A DNA stretch of 29,913 bases from a virus. Lineage: Duplodnaviria > Heunggongvirae > Uroviricota > Caudoviricetes. The stretch is from IMG/VR virus record IMGVR_UViG_2724678986_000028. One strand, written 5' to 3'. Both the position numbers and the translations under genes were made by a program. The notes beneath the pieces are model-generated. The model saw only the letters and a program-made list of their open reading frames with translations, was not told where the DNA came from and searched no databases. Numbering within the stretch: the first letter of the stretch is position 1; each line of letters begins with the position of its first letter. Positions 1 through 11,365 of the stretch are shown here, piece by piece.

Positions 1-1002
1 TTACCCTCTATTGTCAAAAGGGTTCAATTCAACAGCAGCCTCTAAATGACCTGGAGCAAAATGCGCATAACGCATAGTCATTTTTATATCGCTATGCCCC
101 AGTATTTTTTGCAACACAAGAATATTTCCGCCCCGCATCATAAAATGACTGGCAAACGTGTGACGTAGCACATGAGTTAATTGCCCATCAGGAAGCTCGA
201 TCTTCGCTCTCTTAATTGCAGCGTCAAAAGCCTCATAACATGGTGAAAATAGCGCTCCTCGTTTTTGAGGAAGCATAGCCTGCAATTGAGGTGAAATCGG
301 TACAGTGCGGTTCTTCTTTCCTTTAGTTTTAACAAATGTGATTCGACCGGGCAGTACTTGAGATTGCTTTAATCCTTCAGCTTCACTCCACCGAGCACCA
401 GTCGCAAGCCCAATACGGACAACAACCCCCAAATCTTTATTCCGTGACTCATCACACGCAATCAGAAGGCGTTCAATCTCATCTACATACAGAAACGCCA
501 GTTCCTTTTCTTCCTCACGAAACTTGCGAATACCAGTCAGGGGGTTTTCACCAGACCACTCCCCAAGGCGCTTCAGTTCGGCAAAAACAGCATGTAGATA
601 TGACTGCTCGCGATTAACGGTTGCTTCACTAAGTTTTTTCTTCCCCTTGGGATTCCATTCTCCTGATAGCCTTCTTTCCCGATAAGTAGCAAACATATTT
701 TTGTCAAACTGAGAAGCAAATGGATCCCCCAGCCTGGAACAAATCGCCTCAAGTTTGACTTTGCGCTCTGCACCAGAGGACAAGGTTTTACCGTACATCT
801 CAAACCAACGAGCAATCAACTCAGAAAGACGAGGACCAGAACCATCTTGAAACTCGTCTCCAACTCTACTATTCATTAAACGGCGCTCATAAGAGAGCGC
901 CTCACTTTTTGTCGCAAACTGTTTACGAATGCGTTTTCCCGATGCCCCGTAGGGATAACATTCGCAAAGCCATTTACCTGATGGAATCTTACGAACCGAC
1001 AT
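1..1002 (-). CDS. int: P2-family tyrosine integrase
   Basis: Complete 333-aa ORF (stop at 1-3). C-terminal catalytic region shows HxxR (VLRHTFASH) and the terminal Tyr context (KMTMRYAHF). Lies at the prophage edge, co-directional with the repressor as in P2. Confidence 0.9.
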   Translation of the reverse strand: MSVRKIPSGKWLCECYPYGASGKRIRKQFATKSEALSYERRLMNSRVGDEFQDGSGPRLSELIARWFEMYGKTLSSGAERKVKLEAICSRLGDPFASQFDKNMFATYRERRLSGEWNPKGKKKLSEATVNREQSYLHAVFAELKRLGEWSGENPLTGIRKFREEEKELAFLYVDEIERLLIACDESRNKDLGVVVRIGLATGARWSEAEGLKQSQVLPGRITFVKTKGKKNRTVPISPQLQAMLPQKRGALFSPCYEAFDAAIKRAKIELPDGQLTHVLRHTFASHFMMRGGNILVLQKILGHSDIKMTMRYAHFAPGHLEAAVELNPFDNRG

Positions 1003-1007
1003 TTTAG

Positions 1008-1355
1008 TTACTTATCACATAAATCAAATGCAGCCTTAGTGACATCCCCCAGACTCTTTTTTAACCCTGGGGCGGCATCATTATCTAGCCAAAATGGATT
1101 ATTGTTATCTAACGGTAACGCACCAAATGTTTTACCTTTTATTCGAGCTAAACCTGTAAGCGCATATAACTTATTATCGTCAAAATTCATCACATAAGGA
1201 TTACCATCAAGACACTGTAATTGAACCTCATCAGTATTAAATGGCCATACCCCATTGAAACTCTCACGTTCAATAGTTTTAAAAGGCATTGCGACGGCGG
1301 AAAAAGAAAACATAGATAAAAAAGTAACTAATAGTTGAACCTTTTTTACTTTCAT
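1008..1355 (-). CDS. Small secreted protein, unknown function (cargo)
   Basis: 115 aa with an N-terminal signal-peptide-like segment (MKVKKVQLLVTFLSMFSFSAVA) and two Cys in the mature part. AT-richer than the phage backbone. Only 5 nt from the int start. Family unassigned; a DUF2511/YebY-like fold is a guess only. Confidence 0.6.
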   Translation of the reverse strand: MKVKKVQLLVTFLSMFSFSAVAMPFKTIERESFNGVWPFNTDEVQLQCLDGNPYVMNFDDNKLYALTGLARIKGKTFGALPLDNNNPFWLDNDAAPGLKKSLGDVTKAAFDLCDK

Positions 1356-1384
1356 ATCATTACCTCAATTTAGCTCAAGTAAGA

Positions 1385-2035
1385 TTACAAATTAAAAAAC
1401 ACCCTAGAAATGGCACCGCCTACCAAAACCCCTACGCAGATAAAGAATATTATTTCTTTTGGATAAAGTCGGATTAATTCTGAAGCACGAAGTCGAACTT
1501 CTGGTAAGGCCGAACTCTCTGTGTGACTTGATGCCGATTGTTGCTCTAACCACGACAATGCAGACTGTAACTGAGAACGAGTAAGATCGTTTAAACGTCC
1601 TGTACCGAAATTGATATGGCAATACCGCAGAAGTTTTTGTCGAAGTCCACAGTCTTCACTGTTACGTAGTAATAAACTTACAAGAGTCTTACAGGCATCA
1701 TGATCTTTACATCGCTCAAGCATTGCATGCAGAAAACTCTCCGCTGTTTTATATTGATTTACTGTCATATCATCAATACCAGCTACACCAATCTCCGCAT
1801 GTACTTTTTGCCAAATAATAAACGCTTCAGTATTGCTAGCTTCTGCAATAGCAGCAACCAAGCTATTTAGCTCCTTACGCTGAGCCTTAAGCAAAGGGCG
1901 ATCGTCATCATCATTATTCGAAGGGATTGCGATATTGACGGTATGAGAACCATCATATCGCTCTATCTGAATATTCTTTTCGTGAAAATCACGCCCAGCA
2001 ACGCGATTGTTTGAACCGTTTGAGTTGACGGCCAT
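1385..2035 (-). CDS. Tail-anchored membrane protein, unknown function (cargo)
   Basis: 216 aa with a single C-terminal hydrophobic helix (EIIFFICVGVLVGGAISRVFF). GGGAGG RBS 4 nt before the ATG; start lies 15 nt after the repressor stop. The N-terminus carries a motif also found at the repressor C-terminus. Confidence 0.6.
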   Translation of the reverse strand: MAVNSNGSNNRVAGRDFHEKNIQIERYDGSHTVNIAIPSNNDDDDRPLLKAQRKELNSLVAAIAEASNTEAFIIWQKVHAEIGVAGIDDMTVNQYKTAESFLHAMLERCKDHDACKTLVSLLLRNSEDCGLRQKLLRYCHINFGTGRLNDLTRSQLQSALSWLEQQSASSHTESSALPEVRLRASELIRLYPKEIIFFICVGVLVGGAISRVFFNL

Positions 2036-2050
2036 GTCACCTCCCTACTA

Positions 2051-2455
2051 TCACCTACCCTTAGTTTCGTTATAGTCACGACCAGCGATACGGTTATTAC
2101 CACCAGAAATATTTAACTCACGTCCTGATGGCTGAGTTTCCTTTTCACTGATCGCACCTTTTAAAGCCCCGATCACCGCGTTTTTCACATCTAACGAAGC
2201 TGCTCGAAAGCGAGTAATCAACTCCTGCTCATCATCGTTATAAGTTTCAGGTGAGTGAATTCCCAACACAACATACTGAACATCAAGGCCAAAACGAGAC
2301 AGCGCTGCCAAATACGCAGCATCAGGAAAGCTATCTCCTTTCTCATATCTAAGCTGAGTTAGCTTTTTGACTCCACCAATGTCGCTCATGGCAACTTGAC
2401 TAAGTCCCAATCTTTCCCTTTCCTCACGCAACCGCTGACCAATATCATTTTTCAT
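2051..2455 (-). CDS. Immunity repressor, XRE-type HTH (P2 C / 186 CI position)
   Basis: 134 aa; N-terminal HTH (LGLSQVAMSDIGGVKKLTQLRYEKG). Divergent from the early operon and first gene of the leftward repressor-int operon. Confidence 0.75.
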   Translation of the reverse strand: MKNDIGQRLREERERLGLSQVAMSDIGGVKKLTQLRYEKGDSFPDAAYLAALSRFGLDVQYVVLGIHSPETYNDDEQELITRFRAASLDVKNAVIGALKGAISEKETQPSGRELNISGGNNRIAGRDYNETKGR

Positions 2456-2530
2456 ACAAAAACCTTGACAGGTATCTTTTTTGATACCAAAATGATTTCA
2501 CGAGCTATTAGATGATCACAATATACCACT
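2456..2530. promoter_or_regulatory. Divergent lysis-lysogeny switch region with candidate early promoter and operator dyad
   Basis: TTGACA at 2465-2470; a perfect inverted repeat GGTATC(2471-2476)/GATACC(2483-2488) fills the spacer; weak -10-like CAAAAT at 2488-2493. Sits between the divergent repressor and early-operon starts. Confidence 0.4.
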
Positions 2531-2737
2531 ATGAAACAAGTTCTTCACGATACCAGATCACGCATTCCGCGTAACACCGCCACAGGTCCAAGACTGGCAC
2601 TTCGGCTGTCCCTCGAGGAGCGAGCCGTCATTGATGAAATGGCAGCTAAAGAACAACGCTCATCCTCTAACATGGCGCGCATGATCTTCCTTCGCGGCCT
2701 AGAGCTAACCCAGAAAGAACAAAACAAATCTTCCTGA
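2531..2737 (+). CDS. Small ribbon-helix-helix-like regulator, first early gene
   Basis: 68 aa; beta-strand-plus-helix pattern RLALRLSLEERAVIDEMAAKEQ typical of RHH/CopG-type DNA binders. No clear SD, so the start is uncertain. Confidence 0.5.
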   Translation: MKQVLHDTRSRIPRNTATGPRLALRLSLEERAVIDEMAAKEQRSSSNMARMIFLRGLELTQKEQNKSS

Positions 2738-2978: not shown

Positions 2979-3329
2979 ATGAAAAAAAACACTAATAATC
3001 CATACTCCAAATTTCGTAATGGCGTAGAACGCCATGTACACCACGTCGCTACCAGTGCATCACGTAGTAACAGCCGCTATAACCTGAACGAGACGCACGC
3101 AACACCAGATGGGCACGCTGTAAAACAAATCGGCGAACACACCTGGCTGATTGAGAAAGCTGGAATCGTGGTTCACAGATGCCCACACAATCCGTTTACC
3201 GGAAACCGCATTTTTGCATTAAGCAGCGGCGATAATCAGTTCGGGCAGGATTTCACATTGTACGAAGCACTACGCACAGTCGATCGTCTGCTTCGCGGGC
3301 AAAGTTTTATTAAACAGGCTGCTTTATAA
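2979..3329 (+). CDS. Early-operon hypothetical protein
   Basis: 116-aa ORF co-directional in the early operon; no recognisable motif. Confidence 0.5.
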   Translation: MKKNTNNPYSKFRNGVERHVHHVATSASRSNSRYNLNETHATPDGHAVKQIGEHTWLIEKAGIVVHRCPHNPFTGNRIFALSSGDNQFGQDFTLYEALRTVDRLLRGQSFIKQAAL

Positions 3330-3339
3330 CAGGTGCTTT

Positions 3340-3618
3340 ATGACTAAAGACCATGCACAAGGTGTATTTATCCGCTTTATTGATTTTCGCGGTGAACTGT
3401 TATTACGCGCATCAGCTATTGACGGAGTAGTTCCATCTGAAAAAAACGCAGCTACCTACGTTTATCTGAACGGTACACGCCTGACTGTAGAGCTTCCGTA
3501 CCAGATCATTCGCGAAATAATTAGCGAAGCCGAAAAATCTCGTCAGGTTAATGGCGATGAACCCTATATCGAGATTATCTGCATGGATTCAGAAGCTGAA
3601 ATTCAGAAAGCAGATTAA
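3340..3618 (+). CDS. Early-operon hypothetical protein
   Basis: 92-aa ORF, tightly packed in the early operon; no recognisable motif. Confidence 0.5.
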   Translation: MTKDHAQGVFIRFIDFRGELLLRASAIDGVVPSEKNAATYVYLNGTRLTVELPYQIIREIISEAEKSRQVNGDEPYIEIICMDSEAEIQKAD

Positions 3619-3629
3619 AGGGTGTTGCG

Positions 3630-3872
3630 ATGGATAAAGAATATAAAACTCTCATCAACAAAGCACTTGAGCGTTTTTATTTTCGTTTAAGCGCATCCGG
3701 CGCTCATTCAGAACGTGCAGCCCGTGACTCATTGACCAGGGCTATCCGGAGTCTGTATGACGTAGCTTTTTACGCTGACGATCTGGATGCACTTAATGAA
3801 CTTTCTGAGCTTATCTGCGCCGCAGAATGCGGGGAGCATATTGAGCCGTACAAACTGGGAAATATCGCATGA
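3630..3872 (+). CDS. Early-operon hypothetical protein
   Basis: 80-aa ORF, tightly packed in the early operon. Confidence 0.5.
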   Translation: MDKEYKTLINKALERFYFRLSASGAHSERAARDSLTRAIRSLYDVAFYADDLDALNELSELICAAECGEHIEPYKLGNIA

Positions 3873-3982
3873 GTATATTTATATCCTGGATTGTTCTTAT
3901 TATTTCGGTGGTTTGTGCAATTGGTATTATGCGAATTATTAATTCAGTAAAAAAGATTGAACGCTTTTTCACTGGCGAATAA
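3869..3982 (+). CDS. Candidate 37-aa single-pass membrane peptide
   Basis: Not in the ORF track (too short). ATG at 3869 overlaps the preceding stop as ATGA. Translation MSIFISWIVLIISVVCAIGIMRIINSVKKIERFFTGE has a hydrophobic core and a basic C-terminus. Confidence 0.35.
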   Translation: MSIFISWIVLIISVVCAIGIMRIINSVKKIERFFTGE

Positions 3983-4068
3983 CCGCATAAATAAAACCCC
4001 AGCTTAAATAAAAAAATGTGAACACAATCTGCATTCGCAGAGGTATTCACACACACCAAGGAGGCGTA

Positions 4069-4272
4069 ATGGCAATTAAGCATTTTCCTGTCGTTCGTTT
4101 CACCTCCAGAGGACGTGAATACGAAGTCGACGAACGTCTGATTACCACAATCGACAAACACCGCTCAGAAAAGGATGCACACCACATCTATCTCACTGAC
4201 GGCACTTACTTTTGCGCCACTAATGTGGCGCGGGTGAATCTTATCCGACAGGTACAGGATCCACGCAAATGA
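4069..4272 (+). CDS. Early-operon hypothetical protein
   Basis: AAGGAGG at 4058-4064, 4 nt before ATG 4069. The track ORF from 4018 is likely an N-terminal over-extension. 67 aa. Confidence 0.5.
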   Translation: MAIKHFPVVRFTSRGREYEVDERLITTIDKHRSEKDAHHIYLTDGTYFCATNVARVNLIRQVQDPRK

Positions 4273-4487
4273 GTAGGAGAAGAATCACTCGCAGACATCA
4301 CCGAACACACCTGAGTTCCTCAGCAACGCTAAAGGCACTTATTCAAAGCGAGATCGGTGATTTCTTCGCGGGAGTTGGCTCACCAGGCGAACCAGAAACA
4401 CCAGAAGCGATGCAGCGTGAGCTCATGATACGCATAGATAACACTTTTGATTTCTTCTACAGCATGCACGGAATTAAACAGAAATGA
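4269..4487 (+). CDS. Early-operon hypothetical protein (Arg-rich N-terminus)
   Basis: 72-aa ORF; ATGA overlap with the upstream gene. Confidence 0.4.
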   Translation: MSRRRITRRHHRTHLSSSATLKALIQSEIGDFFAGVGSPGEPETPEAMQRELMIRIDNTFDFFYSMHGIKQK

Positions 4488-4595
4488 ACCTCAAGCCAGC
4501 AATAACTACTCGTAGAACGTCAATTCCTGTAACCGACCGCTTCTGAGTTTTTTGGCAGGAAGCCTTCGCACATCTGTAGTAAAGAGAATTGCAGC

Positions 4596-4985
4596 ATGAT
4601 TGACGCTCATGACTTCACAAGATGGGTGCGCACACAGGACACCCGTCTGGCTCCCATTCTTCGGGGATTATTTGATCTCTACATTCGTGGTCGTGACAAC
4701 AGAGCACGCACCACAAAACCGGAGAATGTGGATACCCTTTATTTCACAGTAGACGACTGCTACCGCGTGGACTTCACACCACACGGACTGGCGTTGCACT
4801 GCCTGACACCGCACGGCGAATCACTGCTGGCGTATTACGACTCCCCGGCCTCCGTATTTGCGGCAATGCTGGCGCATCGCACTGCTGGCGGGTGTGTCTC
4901 GCTGAGTGAATACACCGCTGAATTTAACCGCCTTTCCACCATCTTCTTGCAGGAGTGGCAGCGCGTGACGGGATACCAGCCATGA
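4596..4985 (+). CDS. Hypothetical protein immediately upstream of the replication gene
   Basis: 129-aa ORF; its stop overlaps the gpA start as ATGA. Confidence 0.5.
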   Translation: MIDAHDFTRWVRTQDTRLAPILRGLFDLYIRGRDNRARTTKPENVDTLYFTVDDCYRVDFTPHGLALHCLTPHGESLLAYYDSPASVFAAMLAHRTAGGCVSLSEYTAEFNRLSTIFLQEWQRVTGYQP

Positions 4986-7822
4986 GTGCGTTTGCATGGA
5001 GCTGGAATGAACCACGGCCAGCCATTGATCCGGCCAGATTTACGGAGCGCAGGCAGGAAACTGAAACCGACCTGCAACGCGCCATCCGTTACTACCTTGA
5101 GGCAAACAAAAGGGCACAGGAAGAACAGGAAGCGAAGGAGGAAGCCTTTTTCGCACAATCCACCGTGGGTAAAAAACTCATGGCATCCCTTGAGGAAGCC
5201 GGACAGCGTGAAAAGCTGGCACAAAGCATCATCAGCAAGCGTCAGGCAACAGAACAAGACCCGGTGGCCCGTGCTTTTGCCACACTGAAGGTGCTTCCCG
5301 TTTATCTGCGTGAACCTCTGAGCCGCCACCTCTCTTTTCTGCGCAAGAAGCAGGAAGCCGATCGTCAGAAAGGCAAAAAGAGCTGGCAGGCTGAACGCTA
5401 CGCGCGCGGAACCCTGCGCAAAATATTCGAACGTCTGGACCGCACCGACAGCCGCTGGCTGACACCGGGCTATCGCTCCCTTGCCGGACGCGAACGCCTG
5501 GACGATTTGCTTTACCTGCCGCAGCTCAACAAACACCAGATACAGACGCTGGCCACCATGACGGCGGCGATGTTCAGTGGCACTTTTGAAAAACTCTGCG
5601 ATGGCTTTGGCGCGACCGATGGCGAGCTGACCATGGATGTAACGCTGAAGGCGTATCAGATGCTGGCCCGCATGGCGTTACACCTGCACGCTATGCCTCC
5701 ACATTATGACGCTCTGACAACAGACAAAGACCGGAGGAATGAACCGGACACGGAGCTGCTGCCGGGCGCAATCCTTCGCCTGACCTGTGCGGAATGGTGG
5801 AAACGCAAACTGTGGCTGTTACGTTGCGAGTGGAGAGAAGAACAACTCCGCGCCGCCTGTCTGGTTTCCAGAAAAACATCACCCTATCTGAGCCAGGACG
5901 CGTTAAGCGAGTTTCGCGCACAGCGCGAGAAAACACGCGATTTCCTGAAAAGTTTCATGCTGGAAAACGAAGACGGGTTCACGATTGATCTCGAGACAGT
6001 GTATTACGCGGGAGTAAGTAACCCGATTCACCGTAAGGCAGAAATGATGGCCACCATGAAGGGGCTGGAACTTCTGGCCGAAGCCCGTGGCGACAGAGCG
6101 GTGTTTCTGACTGTCACCTGCCCGTCAAAATACCACGCCACAACAGAGAACGGTCATCCGAATCCCAAATGGAACGGGGCCACCATGCGCGACTCCAGCG
6201 ATTACCTGGTTAACACGTTTTTTGCGGCGGTCCGCAAGAAACTGAACCGCGACGGCCTGCGCTGGTATGGCATCCGCACGGTGGAGCCTCACCATGACGG
6301 CACCGTGCACTGGCATATGATGGTCTTTGCTCATCCGGAAGAAATCGACACCATTGTGTCCCACACCCGCGATATTGCCATTCAGGAAGACCGCCACGAG
6401 CTGGGCAATGATATTACTCCGCGCTTTAAGGTGGAGTATGTCGACGGCTCAAAAGGCACGCCAACCAGCTACATCGCCACCTACATCGGAAAGAACCTGG
6501 ACAGCCGCGCCGTGGATGGCATCGACCCGAAAACGGGCAAGCCACGCGTTGACCACGAAACCGGAAAATCAATGGCCGAGAGCGTGGAACGCGCCATCGG
6601 CTGGGCACGCCTTCACCGGGTCCGCCAGTTCCAGTTCTTTGGCATCCCCTCCCGTCAGGTATGGCGTGAACTCCGCCGCCTTGCCAGCCAGATGGCACGC
6701 AACCCGGAAGGCCCACAACGGCTGAAGGATGATGCAATGGATGCGGTACTCGCTGCCGCTGATGCCGGGTGTTTTGCCACCTACATTGAGAAACAGGGCG
6801 GCGTACTTGTTCCACGCAAAGACTACCTGATTCGCACCGCCTACGACCTCGCAGATGAGCTGAACGATTACGGCGAACAGAGCGTACAGATTTACGGGAT
6901 CTGGTCACCACTCATCGGGGAATCCTCCCGTGTGTGCACGCACCCGGATAACTGGAAGCTGGTAAGACGTAAACCGGAAGCGGAAGACAGCACCCGCGAA
7001 AATGGTTTTGACCTTCAGGGCGGCCCTGCCGCCCCTTGGACTCGTGGCAATAACTGTCCCCGTGTACAGGAAACGGACAACAACGGGACAGAACAGCCGG
7101 AAGAAAGGCCAGCACCGTGGCCGCAGCTTCCTGACGGCGTTGACGTGAATGAATGGATGCGCTCACTGAAACGGCACGAACGCCGGGCGCTGATGCGTTC
7201 GCTGCGTGACAAACAGGCAAAAAACAGCAGTGATGAAATGCAGAACTGGACACAGAGCCGCAAACAGCCACGGCCTTTGCCTGATAACCACGAGTTACTC
7301 GCTAAAGAATGGCGGGAGTCTGCTGAATCTCTCGGCCTGCATATCGGTGAACAGCAGATGCAGCACCTGTTACGGGGCGGCAGTCTGTACGTTGACGGCA
7401 GCATCATTGCACCGCAGGGATTTGAAATTGTACGCAAACCAGATACCCGCCCGGACAGCCGAATCACGCAACTCTGGCAGCGCCTGAGCCGTAATCACGG
7501 CGTAAGCAGCACGGAGATCCGCCATAACCCGGTCGCCAGCTATCTGGAACAGCTGGGGGCATCAGACCCCGAAGCCGCCGCACACCTGGCATCCACACTT
7601 CAGCAGGACCAGAACACCATGAAAACCCCCGTTACCGTGCTTTCTGACATGCTGCGCGCCATCCGTGACGCAGTGCACGCACAGAGAATCAGTGAAACCA
7701 CTGAACGCGCCCACCGCAAAGCAGACCTGCTGCGGGGTAGCCTGACCAGTGGAAACAAAAAACAGACAGAAACGGGACTCACAAATCCCGTAAATGAGCA
7801 AAAAACGTGCCGCGATATATGA
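4982..7822 (+). CDS. A: Rolling-circle replication initiator, P2 gpA family (HUH endonuclease)
   Basis: About 946 aa. HUH motif VHWHMMVF and paired-tyrosine motif SYIATYIGKN are visible. First ATG at 4982; the GTG at 4955 in the track has no usable SD. Confidence 0.85.
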   Translation: MSAFAWSWNEPRPAIDPARFTERRQETETDLQRAIRYYLEANKRAQEEQEAKEEAFFAQSTVGKKLMASLEEAGQREKLAQSIISKRQATEQDPVARAFATLKVLPVYLREPLSRHLSFLRKKQEADRQKGKKSWQAERYARGTLRKIFERLDRTDSRWLTPGYRSLAGRERLDDLLYLPQLNKHQIQTLATMTAAMFSGTFEKLCDGFGATDGELTMDVTLKAYQMLARMALHLHAMPPHYDALTTDKDRRNEPDTELLPGAILRLTCAEWWKRKLWLLRCEWREEQLRAACLVSRKTSPYLSQDALSEFRAQREKTRDFLKSFMLENEDGFTIDLETVYYAGVSNPIHRKAEMMATMKGLELLAEARGDRAVFLTVTCPSKYHATTENGHPNPKWNGATMRDSSDYLVNTFFAAVRKKLNRDGLRWYGIRTVEPHHDGTVHWHMMVFAHPEEIDTIVSHTRDIAIQEDRHELGNDITPRFKVEYVDGSKGTPTSYIATYIGKNLDSRAVDGIDPKTGKPRVDHETGKSMAESVERAIGWARLHRVRQFQFFGIPSRQVWRELRRLASQMARNPEGPQRLKDDAMDAVLAAADAGCFATYIEKQGGVLVPRKDYLIRTAYDLADELNDYGEQSVQIYGIWSPLIGESSRVCTHPDNWKLVRRKPEAEDSTRENGFDLQGGPAAPWTRGNNCPRVQETDNNGTEQPEERPAPWPQLPDGVDVNEWMRSLKRHERRALMRSLRDKQAKNSSDEMQNWTQSRKQPRPLPDNHELLAKEWRESAESLGLHIGEQQMQHLLRGGSLYVDGSIIAPQGFEIVRKPDTRPDSRITQLWQRLSRNHGVSSTEIRHNPVASYLEQLGASDPEAAAHLASTLQQDQNTMKTPVTVLSDMLRAIRDAVHAQRISETTERAHRKADLLRGSLTSGNKKQTETGLTNPVNEQKTCRDI

Positions 7823-7898: not shown

Positions 7899-8858
7899 AT
7901 GAAAATTTGTATCGACGACGGCTCCACCAACATCAAGCTGGCGTGGACTGAGAACGGCGAACGCCGCAACGCCATCAGCCCGAACAGCTTCAAGTCGGAA
8001 TGGTCTGCGCCGTTCGGTGGCACGCAGCCCGCGAACTACATGCTTGATGGCGTGCGCTATGGTTTTGATCCGGTCAGCGATCGCTTTGTCCAGACGACCG
8101 ACACGCAATACCAGTACAGCGATGTGAATATAATTGCCATTCATCACGCGCTGGTCAAATCAGGCATCACACCACAGGAAGTGGATGTGGTTGTCACCCT
8201 GCCACTGAGCGAGTATTTCGATACAAACGCACAGCCGGACATGGCCAACATCAACCGCAAAAAAGCGAACGTCATGCGCCCGGTGGAGTACCAGAACGGC
8301 GAAGCATTCACTATCCGTAACGTACGGGTTATGCCTGAATCCATTCCGGCTGGCTTTAAGGCACTGGCTGACATGAGTCCGTTTGAATCCCTGCTGATTG
8401 TGGATTTGGGCGGAACCACTCTGGATGTGGCAAAGGTTCAGGGGCAACTGGCAGGTATCAGCCAGGTGTTTTGCGATCCACACGTGGGCGTTTCTCTGAT
8501 GGCCGATGCCGTACTGTCGGTGATGGCCACTAACGGTATGCGCACCAGTCACCACATCGCCAATACCATTATCGAACATCGCCATGATGAAGCCTGGCTG
8601 CGCCAGCACATCCACAATGACGCGCATTACGCCAGCCTGATGGCGGTTATTCGTGAAAAGGAAGAAACACTGAAACAACGCGTGATCCGCGCGCTGGCGG
8701 GTTTTTCGGGTTACGGGCGGGTGATGGTTGTCGGTGGAGGGGCGGAGATTGTGGCACCCGCTATCCGCGAAGCCTGCGGAGTTAATGCGACTTTCATCGC
8801 GGACGGGGTGCCACAGTTTGCTCTGGTTAATGGGCTGTACGCAATGGACAAGGAGTAA
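7899..8858 (+). CDS. parM: ParM/StbA-like actin-fold partition ATPase
   Basis: 319 aa. Actin-fold motifs IDDGSTNIKL (phosphate 1), IVDLGGTTLDV (phosphate 2) and VVGGGAE (adenosine). Collinear over its full length with plasmid R1 ParM as recalled. RBS AAGGA upstream. Confidence 0.85.
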   Translation: MKICIDDGSTNIKLAWTENGERRNAISPNSFKSEWSAPFGGTQPANYMLDGVRYGFDPVSDRFVQTTDTQYQYSDVNIIAIHHALVKSGITPQEVDVVVTLPLSEYFDTNAQPDMANINRKKANVMRPVEYQNGEAFTIRNVRVMPESIPAGFKALADMSPFESLLIVDLGGTTLDVAKVQGQLAGISQVFCDPHVGVSLMADAVLSVMATNGMRTSHHIANTIIEHRHDEAWLRQHIHNDAHYASLMAVIREKEETLKQRVIRALAGFSGYGRVMVVGGGAEIVAPAIREACGVNATFIADGVPQFALVNGLYAMDKE

Positions 8859-9237: not shown

Positions 9238-9828
9238 ATGAGCGAAATCAACTATCAGGCATTACGTGAACGTTATTCACCTGTGCCAGTACCGAAATGC
9301 CCTATTTGCGGCGAGGAAATGTCAATTCAGCGAATATCTGGAGCACAGGTTGTTTATGCCTGCTCCGGTTATGGTGATGATGGAGATTTCAAAATTGGCC
9401 GAACTCTTGCCGACGAACATTATGAAAAATCACGCGTAACAGTGTTGGATGTCGGGGATCCTGAAGTATTGGCGCTACTTGATTGGCTGGAAACCAAAGA
9501 CAACCGAATCGCTGAACTGGAAAAAATCGCCACTGACTATGCACTTAAATTCCAGAAAGCACAGGACGCATTAAAGTATGCCGCTTTGCTGCATAGCAGG
9601 ACGGCGCAACAAACAAATAATTTTGCAGTATCGCTTCCGGACATAAGCGAATATTTCATTAATGACGTATTTCAGCCCTTGCGATACGAGCGGGATGTTG
9701 AAAGAGCCATCATAAAGGCTGGCGGAAAAGCATTGTGGCAGGAGAAACACGAGGACAGAACGCATCAGTCCTGCGATGTAAATCGTGGATGGTTTAGCCC
9801 ACTGACGACAGATAAAAATAACACCTGA
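9238..9828 (+). CDS. Hypothetical protein, Cys-containing N-terminus and central coiled-coil-like segment
   Basis: 196 aa; AAGGAG 9 nt upstream; N-terminal CPICGEEM...YACSGYG. The 3' half is AT-richer. No family assigned. Confidence 0.5.
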   Translation: MSEINYQALRERYSPVPVPKCPICGEEMSIQRISGAQVVYACSGYGDDGDFKIGRTLADEHYEKSRVTVLDVGDPEVLALLDWLETKDNRIAELEKIATDYALKFQKAQDALKYAALLHSRTAQQTNNFAVSLPDISEYFINDVFQPLRYERDVERAIIKAGGKALWQEKHEDRTHQSCDVNRGWFSPLTTDKNNT

Positions 9829-10318: not shown

Positions 10319-11365
10319 TCAGGATGTGGGCTGGGTGTCTAACAGTGCGTAAGGGTTAAAGCGGATCACCTCTTCGCCAAGCCAGTCATTGATGTGCTTC
10401 ATGGCCTCCATGACGGGCATCAGCTCGTTAATTGCGTAAACCCGCGCGGCCTTCTCCACATCACCAAACGCACTTTTTTCACCCGGCATCGCCCCCATCA
10501 GTTGCGGCGGAACGCGGTGCGCAGCCAGCACATCATCACGGGATGCCGCCTTAACATTCATGAACTCATCCTTTGCGGTGATCTGCTGGAACGGCAAAAT
10601 TTGCACCCCCTCTTTGCCCCCGTTGGGCGCATGAATGAGCACGTTTTTAAACGCACCACCACCACGCGCACCCTGTAGCGTTTCTTTCAGGGAGTCCATG
10701 CTTTCGCGGTTTACCTGCGCTGCACCGATGTAGATGATGCACCCGGCGTGGGATCCGTTGTCGTAATACAGTTTTCTGAACATGTCCGCCGAATGAGACA
10801 GGCTGGCCGAGAGTAATGCGCCGAGATATTCCGGCATGCCGTAGATTTCCTGGTTAATGTCCGGATTCATCAGGTGGCACACTTTGCCTGGGCGAAACTG
10901 AAACGCATCCTTGCCATCCTGCACATACCACCATGATTCAAGATCGCTTCCGCGTCGCATGTATTTCGCCAGGGCGTGCCGTAATTTAAGCGGTTCGCCG
11001 AGCATATTGCTTCGAAGCTCAAGGAATGCGTTACCGAACACAAACCAGTCCAGCGCCAGCGCCGAGAAATCCTGCCGGGAAAGCAGCGGGTGCGGGATGT
11101 AGCAACCGAGCAATACATTGCGCTTAAAGTAAAGCGCAGACTGATGCCAGGACGTTTGCCGGGCGGCTCTTGCCAGACCGTACCAGTCCACCGGGGTTTC
11201 ATACCACCGCCCGTTATCAGCACAGTACATATTGTCCAGCAGGTCATGCCCGGTCAGGCGATAAGGACCATCAAATGTGAATGCACTGAGCGATGATTCT
11301 TTCCTGAGCGCATCAGCGAGATCAATGCGTGAACTCATGCGCACTTTTTTATTTTTTCTGCTCAT
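10319..11365 (-). CDS. Q: Portal protein, P2 gpQ family
   Basis: 348 aa; position (after cos, before terminase), size and 1-nt stop/start overlap with gpP match the P2 Q-P arrangement. Confidence 0.85.
   Translation of the reverse strand: MSRKNKKVRMSSRIDLADALRKESSLSAFTFDGPYRLTGHDLLDNMYCADNGRWYETPVDWYGLARAARQTSWHQSALYFKRNVLLGCYIPHPLLSRQDFSALALDWFVFGNAFLELRSNMLGEPLKLRHALAKYMRRGSDLESWWYVQDGKDAFQFRPGKVCHLMNPDINQEIYGMPEYLGALLSASLSHSADMFRKLYYDNGSHAGCIIYIGAAQVNRESMDSLKETLQGARGGGAFKNVLIHAPNGGKEGVQILPFQQITAKDEFMNVKAASRDDVLAAHRVPPQLMGAMPGEKSAFGDVEKAARVYAINELMPVMEAMKHINDWLGEEVIRFNPYALLDTQPTS

Follow-up and report, generated by a model that had tools for sequence, protein, structure and literature searches.

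A prophage repressor and its membrane-anchored neighbour carry cognate copies of one terminal peptide, which points to a link between the lysogeny switch and the cell membrane

We analysed the immunity region of a complete P2-like prophage (IMG/VR record IMGVR_UViG_2724678986_000028; 29,913 nucleotides (nt), or 29.9 kb, called the window below), in which the repressor and the protein encoded directly downstream carry nearly the same peptide, at the C-terminus of the former and the N-terminus of the latter. Four co-directional open reading frames (ORFs) lie there on the minus strand, as the original prediction had described, with gaps of 15, 29 and 5 nt. The ORF list places an immunity repressor of 134 amino acids (aa) at 2051..2455 and a 216-aa protein, hereafter the partner, at 1385..2035. 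They are followed by a variable slot holding here a 115-aa protein (1008..1355) and by a tyrosine integrase (1..1002; Pfam Int_N, 5e-32, and Phage_integrase, 2e-22), which ends the operon. As neither terminator-like nor promoter-like sites were seen on the minus strand between the repressor and int, a single operon fits this stretch, and the repressor and the partner would be co-transcribed. Direct reading of the spacer between the repressor stop and the partner start (2036..2050, minus strand) revealed a strong Shine-Dalgarno sequence, tagtagGGAGGTGAcATG, and two further in-frame stops; in all, three stops, TGA TAG TAG, part the two ORFs.

The repressor ends with LNISGGNNRIAGRDYNE (residues 114-130; 2066..2116, minus strand) followed by TKGR and the stop, and the partner starts with MA followed by VNSNGSNNRVAGRDFHE (residues 3-19; 1979..2029, minus strand). 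The core of this shared motif, GGNNRIAGRDYNE at nt 2066-2104 in the repressor and GSNNRVAGRDFHE at nt 1979-2017 in the partner, is located where the original prediction had placed it, and the similarity extends to 17 residues in the pairwise alignment, the full shared stretch being 17-19 residues. A BLASTP comparison of the two proteins gave 10 identical and 15 positive residues out of 17, with E = 2e-5 for this single comparison. Within real ORFs of the window, AGRD-type sites were found only at these two places. The two copies had been said to use different codons, which proved correct since only four of the ten identical residues share a codon; this comparison also bears out the proposal that selection acted on the peptide and that no recent DNA duplication is involved. 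Judged by sequence, the resemblance is far beyond chance once other genomes are counted. The consensus of 44 distinct tails of the family is [IV]N[VI]SGxGNR[VI]AGRD[YF][NH]ENKK-COOH, and its core holds a conserved R-D pair. Partners often contain two pseudo-repeats of the motif, and repressors one. The second repeat of the window partner, NIQIERYDGSHTVNIAI (residues 21-37, reaching nt 1925, minus strand), is degenerate, and it is explicit in relatives (NVQAGRDVISI in Hafnia, QLIGRDIVNIS in P0242). Enrichment in the motif regions is 3-4-fold for N in both copies and, for G, 2.7-fold in tails against 1.6-fold in partner N-termini. It is barely seen for V and I and absent for Q; P and K are underrepresented, and so, about 5-11-fold, is L.

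The repressor is predicted to comprise an XRE-type helix-turn-helix (HTH) domain (residues 1-64), two more helices (residues 74-102) and a disordered C-terminal tail (residues 103-134). Its Pfam matches to HTH_31, HTH_19 and HTH_3 remained below the cut-offs (for HTH_3/HTH_31, 23.2 vs 27 and 19.1 vs 23), and it matched the PHROG repressor families 8, 4 and 3 at 1e-14 to 1e-6. In the AlphaFold2 (AF2) model (mef4f3eb88637) the helices of residues 5-102 are confident, and the predicted local distance difference test score (pLDDT) of the 32-residue tail is about 50. The best Foldseek matches of this model were SinR (from the SinR/SinI complex, 1b0n), P22 c2 and P2 C (2xcj), and it superposes on P22 c2, the 434 repressor and P2 C with a root-mean-square deviation of 1.6-2.3 A. 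No S24 (LexA/lambda-CI-type) peptidase domain was matched by Pfam in the repressor, whose chain stops after the two helices and the tail; it is not a self-cleaving repressor of the LexA/lambda-CI type. In nearly all repressors the tail closes, past the motif, with a short basic cluster (TKGR, NKK, KKNK, RRRKTK or KKKQ; nt 2054-2065 in the window), and no such cluster follows the motif in the partner copy.

The partner comprises an N-terminal motif region (residues 1-40), a helical Flk_N domain (residues 45-172; 1520..1903, minus strand), a variable linker and a C-terminal transmembrane (TM) anchor (residues 192-215; 1391..1462, minus strand). Precomputed Pfam annotation assigns Flk_N (PF27202) to the near-identical P0001 and to 118 of the 119 other listed homologues, that is, to all but P0006. 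The match to the NCBIfam Flk model PRK10715 covers residues 37-166 only (E = 8.9e-16, 58.1 bits). An assignment of the partner as a Flk orthologue was rejected, as these 58 bits compare with an equivalog cut-off of 353 and host Flk lacks the motif. The partner matched phrog_5825 (E = 3.7e-102) and showed a weak PHROG similarity to phrog_245, the Ant family (E = 0.004). In its AF2 model (mb3cc57e3b444) the all-helical Flk_N domain is confident, and pLDDT is <50 for residues 1-27 and 32-40; the low confidence of the models at both motif-bearing termini is as would be expected of segments that fold on binding. Hydropathy detected a sole hydrophobic segment at residues 193-209 of 216, where AF2 predicts a helix (192-215, pLDDT about 90), and the C-terminal end, xFxVGxLxGxxIF, is conserved in 42 homologues. 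This single hydrophobic helix at the extreme C-terminus indicates a tail-anchored protein, in agreement with the original prediction, and the model is that of an inner-membrane protein without signal peptide whose remainder would be cytoplasmic. A search of solved structures with the partner profile gave nothing below E = 0.26.

The 115-aa protein matched Pfam DUF2511 (PF10709) with 28.4 bits for a cut-off of 21 and, among PDB entries, YebY (7n0j, E = 0.0027). Its N-terminus, proposed earlier to be a signal peptide, is signal-peptide-like on inspection; homology searches on the two proteins identified a Flk_N protein and a predicted exported relative of YebY/DUF2511. Neither protein matched any family of the PADLOC 2.0 defence models (0 families), where nothing beyond HTH similarity was found.

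Homologues of the partner with 39-99% identity were found in Klebsiella, Serratia, Erwinia, Enterobacter, Hafnia, Arsenophonus and other genera, including E. coli. They lie directly downstream of a repressor of the same family, with one exception, Erwinia L009, where a YebY gene stands in between. The original prediction would have been contradicted by an absence of the motif from homologous pairs, and the motif was retained in every divergent pair examined: all intact partner copies carry it at their start, and at each locus examined that has the repressor family and an intact tail, the adjacent downstream protein repeats this tail N-terminally. P0224, a tail-less member of the repressor family, is without a matching downstream N-terminus. 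The pair is carried by P2-like prophages of at least 10 genera, and the same pairing is found in Mu-like prophages of Pectobacterium, Gilliamella and Pseudomonas aeruginosa, in which transposase, MuB-like and Ner-like genes are present. The Klebsiella version of the partner occurs on >750 contigs. The left end of the window (3-kb region), which adjoins yecA, was found in 516 of 5426 complete E. coli genomes and is 98% identical across these first 3 kb to Escherichia phage 520873 (Peduoviridae, Xuanwuvirus), the only named phage of the phage record collection in which the partner was found. As the partner is a constant companion of the repressor in two unrelated phage types, P2-like and Mu-like, we consider it a part of the immunity module. 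The 216-aa gene, read from this distribution, is core to the module, and the earlier description of a two-gene cargo holds for the 115-aa gene and not for its larger neighbour. No published description of the module was found in the literature searched; it is widespread and apparently undescribed.

The slot of the third gene contains a YebY-like gene, a gene for one of several unrelated lipoproteins or other proteins, or no gene (L018). The YebY-like gene is replaced by unrelated genes in L002, L003, L009, L016 and L020-L025, and the product is almost always a small exported protein or lipoprotein, though of unrelated families (Gilliamella L022/L023/L024; L002, 3008-3394; L009, 4649-5245). Because only this slot varies, being at times empty while the partner is constant, the membrane and periplasmic proteins do not form the unit that had been proposed. 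From the loci compared, the constant unit is the repressor with the partner, the YebY-like gene occupying a moron slot. The recurrence of small exported products suggests that the third slot, right after the repressor-partner unit, is a favoured place for envelope-acting morons (exclusion or conversion).

All partners examined are membrane proteins by sequence, and they show several architectures. The commonest consists of Flk_N and a tail anchor, others are proteins of 150-160 aa with two TM helices or combine a Zn-ribbon with two TM helices, and a further kind, of 260-340 aa, joins a Flk_N-like segment and a coiled coil to one TM helix and a periplasmic domain, Cys-containing or other. On the architectures other than the commonest, Pfam gave only a sub-threshold Zn-ribbon. 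The motif, which heads these four unrelated architectures, appears from them to be a portable tag. A profile search of 1.84 billion representative proteins detected only 142 Flk_N clusters, and all phage-type clusters among them have an N-terminal extension of 20-40 residues bearing a G/N-rich motif, often as two pseudo-repeats. In degraded prophages of endosymbionts both motif copies have decayed together. The repressor of L015 (Symbiopectobacterium, 3602-4628) reads NRVAGNNFHE and the partner N-terminus is gone, and that of L019 (Arsenophonus endosymbiont, 3574-3939) is truncated within the motif. L017 (Arsenophonus triatominarum, 3063-3449 and 3691-3960) contains tandem repressor-like genes, both with the tail QRIAGRDYNE, the second N-terminally truncated, upstream of a single partner gene.

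At least eight versions of the motif were distinguished, and in each pair the repressor tail and the partner N-terminus agree in version. The window, with the AGRD version, has the tail NNRIAGRDYNE and the partner NNRVAGRDFHE; tail and partner read NNRVAGRDY and NNRVAGRDY in L073, GQIAGGNIYT and EQIAGRDIYN in L023, QVFHGSVGQV and QDFHGDVGQV in L095, QIFNGDISGQFAGNQIIN and QEFNGTAQGQFSSRDIIN in L020, QQFNGPVGTVTSGDVVN and QQFHDRVHQVAAGDIKN in L025, and QVFHGAVSGGVAARDIIN and QEFQGNVDGGVAGRDIVN in L091. Sharing of the motif between the C-terminus and the N-terminus of adjacent genes was observed in all 31 dereplicated pairs, as well as in L107 and L108. In the 31 pairs, with shared descent of the loci not corrected for, the mean score was 45.8 for cognate and 30.7 for non-cognate combinations, and the observed cognate sum was reached in 0 of 20000 permutations (p <= 5e-5). 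We relied on this permutation test because a background-score test, which was dropped, was contaminated by partner copies of loci outside the pair list. Within the AGRD class, tail and partner agreed on Y or F at position +4 in 24 of 35 pairs where 16.3 were expected (p about 0.002, uncorrected for phylogeny).

The matching is unlikely to result from gene conversion between the two copies, a candidate that we rejected from codon usage, because synonymous codons differ: identical residues share their codons at about 20-60% in eight of the nine pairs checked, the exception being the short segment of L023 (5/6), and in L073 only two of ten codons are the same although 10 of 11 residues are identical. 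The motif is also retained in pairs whose partners are only 39-46% identical. Between the Gilliamella prophages L022 and L023, DNA identity is 95-100% from upstream of the repressor to about its codon 100-107 and falls to about 50% beyond, through the tail and the partner; the breakpoint lies inside the repressor gene, and the tail and the partner travel as one cassette. Pectobacterium has both AGRD-class and QIFNG-class pairs, and Gilliamella three motif classes on near-identical HTH domains. The presence of several classes within one host genus makes a fixed host factor unlikely as their common reader. A coupling of repressor and membrane protein through the tag, as proposed, thus gains support, at the level of sequence, from the covariation of versions and the exchange of cassettes.

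These observations point to a physical link, undescribed so far, between the lysogeny switch and the cell membrane. We tentatively favour, albeit short of even confidence, a reading in which the 216-aa protein is dedicated to the repressor as its membrane-anchored partner, the shared peptide of about 19 residues being a cognate homotypic pairing tag that couples the two. The disordered C-terminal tail of the repressor and the near-identical peptide that starts the partner on the cytoplasmic side would pair strand-against-strand, and a fraction of the repressor would thereby be held, or modified, at the inner membrane. By capturing or capping repressor tails, the partner may tune the pool of self-associated, operator-bound repressor, and the maintenance or loss of lysogeny would thus be tied to the state of the envelope, giving the switch an envelope input. 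The partner would follow the logic of SinI towards SinR, an antagonist or modulator in which the interaction element of the repressor is duplicated, with a membrane tether in addition. C-terminal recognition tags of ClpX, such as that of MuA, resemble the basic ends of the repressor tails, and by analogy the basic cluster could be a degron whose exposure is controlled by the pairing. We infer the contact between the two copies, its membrane-to-repressor direction and its effect on induction or immunity; this direction is favoured because some partners have periplasmic domains. Several points weigh against such a modulator. Covariation would also be expected if both copies bound one co-evolving third protein, and a partner sequestering repressor at 1:1 would leave none free, so that stoichiometry or affinity would have to be limiting. 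The window partner has essentially no periplasmic part for sensing, and Sp13, the closely related prophage of E. coli O157:H7 Sakai, could be induced by other candidates that it carries, an annotated antirepressor or a P4 epsilon-like gene.

The same pairing could operate in the opposite direction, with the repressor as trigger and the membrane partner as effector, which we regard as unlikely. A change of repressor state (DNA release, clustering on incoming DNA, or a foreign antirepressor) would make the tails nucleate the N-terminal repeats of the partner, and the clustered partner would act on the membrane, leading to exclusion, abortive infection or timing of lysis. The two pseudo-repeats of the partner against one in the repressor reproduce the repeat layout of amyloid-signalling gene pairs, in which the cell-death effector has 2-3 repeats and the NLR one (10.1101/2020.01.06.895854). 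Several partners (L022, L064, L095, L073) are small proteins with two TM helices, a charged C-terminus and a holin-like topology, and a constant sensor combined with variable effectors is the usual layout of defence systems. However, no match of any partner to a PADLOC model or to a known family of pore-formers or holins was found, the large conserved soluble Flk_N domain of the commonest partner would be needless for a mere pore-former, and the periplasmic domains of some partners resemble inputs rather than outputs. To our knowledge there is also no precedent for a prophage suicide effector wired to the prophage's own repressor. No more probable than this reversal, in our estimate, is that the two copies are read not by each other but by a third component, such as a protease or adaptor (ClpXP, Lon, FtsH) or a phage antirepressor, the partner then competing for this reader, or acting as its decoy, at the membrane and so buffering the repressor, much as lambda CIII shields CII from FtsH. 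The original prediction had already suggested a recognition tag of this kind. Both copies are at free disordered termini, the usual location of degrons and antirepressor sites, the repressor tails end in basic clusters (KK, KKNK, RRRKTK), and Sp13 encodes both an annotated antirepressor and an epsilon-like derepression protein. The epsilon-like gene is nevertheless missing from the window (no match by tblastn), and the location of one copy at an N-terminus and of the other at a C-terminus is awkward for end-specific protease tags. Moreover, a host factor cannot explain that classes coexist in one host genus and switch with the partner on an identical repressor, its DNA-binding domain unchanged, and P2-like and Mu-like phages have no obvious shared third early gene beside the module. 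From these comparisons, direct and class-specific pairing fits best and is favoured over a common reader.

It is very improbable that the similarity is a historical residue without present function, left when an ancestral HTH-linker-membrane gene was split or its junction duplicated. The repressor and partner ORFs do share their reading frame in the window, L002, L003 and L007, but this relation is not general (gaps of 17, 32 and -4 nt in L018, L020 and L023), and in the window the ORFs are parted by three stops. Fused HTH-Flk_N proteins were absent from the 142 family representatives in 1.84 billion proteins and from the long repressor homologues. Except in the shortest of the nine pairs checked, the motif has been conserved against largely randomised synonymous sites; it is kept with partners of 39-46% identity, covaries, and heads unrelated membrane proteins. 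Stop-codon read-through or another frame-based fusion was likewise rejected, given TGA TAG TAG in the window and the gaps of 17, 32 and -4 nt elsewhere.

It is doubtful, more so than either the reversed direction or a third reader, that the shared peptide belongs to a new family of functional amyloid-like signalling motifs (cross-beta, templating). Were it so, an ordered assembly, seeded by clustering of either the partner or the repressor, would recruit and convert the copy of the other protein, providing the lysis-lysogeny switch of P2-like and Mu-like phages with an all-or-none, SOS-independent trigger from the membrane. This would be the first amyloid-type signalling over a transcription factor and a phage life-cycle decision, extending amyloid signalling from cell-death effectors to gene regulation, and orthogonal motif classes would prevent cross-talk of co-resident prophages.

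How a prophage exits when its repressor cannot cleave itself is a long-standing question, to which the answers so far have been soluble antirepressors. Here, a membrane-anchored protein joins the core immunity operon, and the 19-residue tag offers a simple, falsifiable handle. If the favoured direct pairing of the tags occurs, they would constitute a compact natural adaptor with several apparently orthogonal versions and indicate a new place to seek envelope-triggered induction. The module is common and is present in Sp13, whose unexplained induction by mitomycin C makes it a ready test bed. In Sp13 the repressor is ECs_2620 ('phage repressor protein', 133 of 134 residues identical to the window), the partner ECs_2619 ('membrane protein', 211/216) and the YebY-like protein ECs_2618 (115/115). 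Sp13 excises spontaneously, and mitomycin C increases its circular form about 30-fold (Asadulghani et al., PMC2669165). The same authors called this induction remarkable for a repressor without peptidase motif, described its mechanism as 'yet to be elucidated' and pointed to a P4 epsilon-like gene (PMC2669165). In Sp13 (L113) an ORF annotated as 'antirepressor' (7054-7671), with a nested P4 epsilon-like 'derepression protein' (7365-7595), is located in the early operon. As tblastn found no counterpart of the epsilon-like gene in the window, the two otherwise near-identical prophages differ in their candidate induction genes. The module could answer how Sp13 is induced.

Beyond the module, an early promoter-like site (TTGACA-17-CAAAAT; 2465..2493, plus strand) points away from the repressor. 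It is the other arm of the switch, upstream of a ribbon-helix-helix (RHH)-like ORF (2531-2737) and a Cox-like ORF (2754-2957); the site and these ORFs were read partly via the annotation of the 98% identical phage 520873. The RHH-like ORF (68 aa, plus strand), whose position before the Cox-like gene is unlike P2, is an 'Arc-like repressor' in phage 520873, and its Pfam RHH matches are weak (E = 0.075). At the same place RefSeq annotates a 45-aa ORF of the opposite strand in Sakai (ECs_2621) and in L002, with its window counterpart at 2545-2727 (minus strand). In E. coli OkiPb01684 (NZ_AP042519.1, 2611364-2615140) an IS1A insertion within the 3-kb immunity region splits the match into two pieces, and the annotation lists an IS1 transposase amid the integrase, YebY and membrane-protein genes. 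The window carries a ParM/StbA-like actin gene (7899-8858, plus strand; Pfam StbA_N, 3.7e-82, and ParM C-terminal, 1.3e-68) and an Ead/Ea22-like gene (9238-9828, plus strand) in the stretch from the replication gene (4955-7822) to the portal gene (10319-11365, minus strand). In P2 this slot is occupied by old and tin, and a plasmid-type segregation actin is uncommon for a P2-like prophage. The same stbA (ECs_2634) occurs in Sp13, where a second 'plasmid partition protein' comes next.

Among known systems, the immunity region of P2 shares with the window the order of repressor and int, the divergent Cox-like gene and the structural match to P2 C. In P2, C and int are adjacent and transcribed from Pc, with cox divergent, whereas the window has two genes between the repressor and int, a 134-aa repressor with an extra tail and an RHH-like ORF before cox. 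The module resembles antirepressor systems (186 Tum, P4 epsilon acting on P2 C, P22 Ant, RS1 RstC) in combining a second protein with a repressor devoid of peptidase; RstC of RS1 drives the repressor RstR into aggregates. Antirepressors are, however, soluble and made from a separate promoter only upon an induction signal, whereas the partner is membrane-bound, made with the repressor in the lysogen and marked by a copy of its tail. Flk of Salmonella and E. coli, an experimentally established tail-anchored protein in E. coli (PMC6794478), has in common with the partner a homologous, though distantly related, Flk_N domain and a C-terminal tail anchor. Host Flk differs in its length of 326-490 aa, its start (MQPxSGP...), its two Flk_N-like stretches and its lack of the motif, and no flagellar link of the partner was seen in the present data.

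The location of a short motif at the C- and N-termini encoded by adjacent genes recalls amyloid-signalling pairs, where it has about 20-25 residues: Bab/Agp (BASS11) of E. coli, Bell/NLR (BASS1-10) of Actinobacteria and Cyanobacteria, and HET-S/NWD2 of fungi. There, too, several sequence families are matched per pair, the motif is sometimes doubled in one partner, and one partner is at the membrane. Motifs of such systems favour G, N, Q, V and I over K, P and L and have beta-strand propensity. Compared with the composition bias described with the BASS1-10 families (10.1101/2020.01.06.895854), the motif of the present module agrees in G, N, L, P and K and departs in Q, with V and I barely enriched. 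That such signalling works in E. coli and is found in prophages is known from Bab/Agp (10.1101/2024.11.07.622273). The module differs in that it joins a DNA-binding repressor to a Flk_N or other membrane protein, not an NLR or TPR sensor to a Bell or HeLo effector, lies in an immunity operon and not in a defence island, shows no enrichment of Q and has an R-D pair in the motif core. We did not file it as BASS because its domains do not correspond, although its architecture does. SinR/SinI (and SlrR) of Bacillus subtilis provides another parallel, SinR being the best structural match of the repressor, with an XRE HTH and a short helical C-terminal part. The C-terminal interaction segment of SinR recurs in SinI, and the heteromer of the two takes SinR off its operators. 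SinR and SinI have in common a helical hook within folded domains, and the antagonist is a small soluble protein; in the present module the common element is a disordered terminal peptide rich in G and N, and the second protein, co-transcribed downstream of the repressor, has a membrane anchor.

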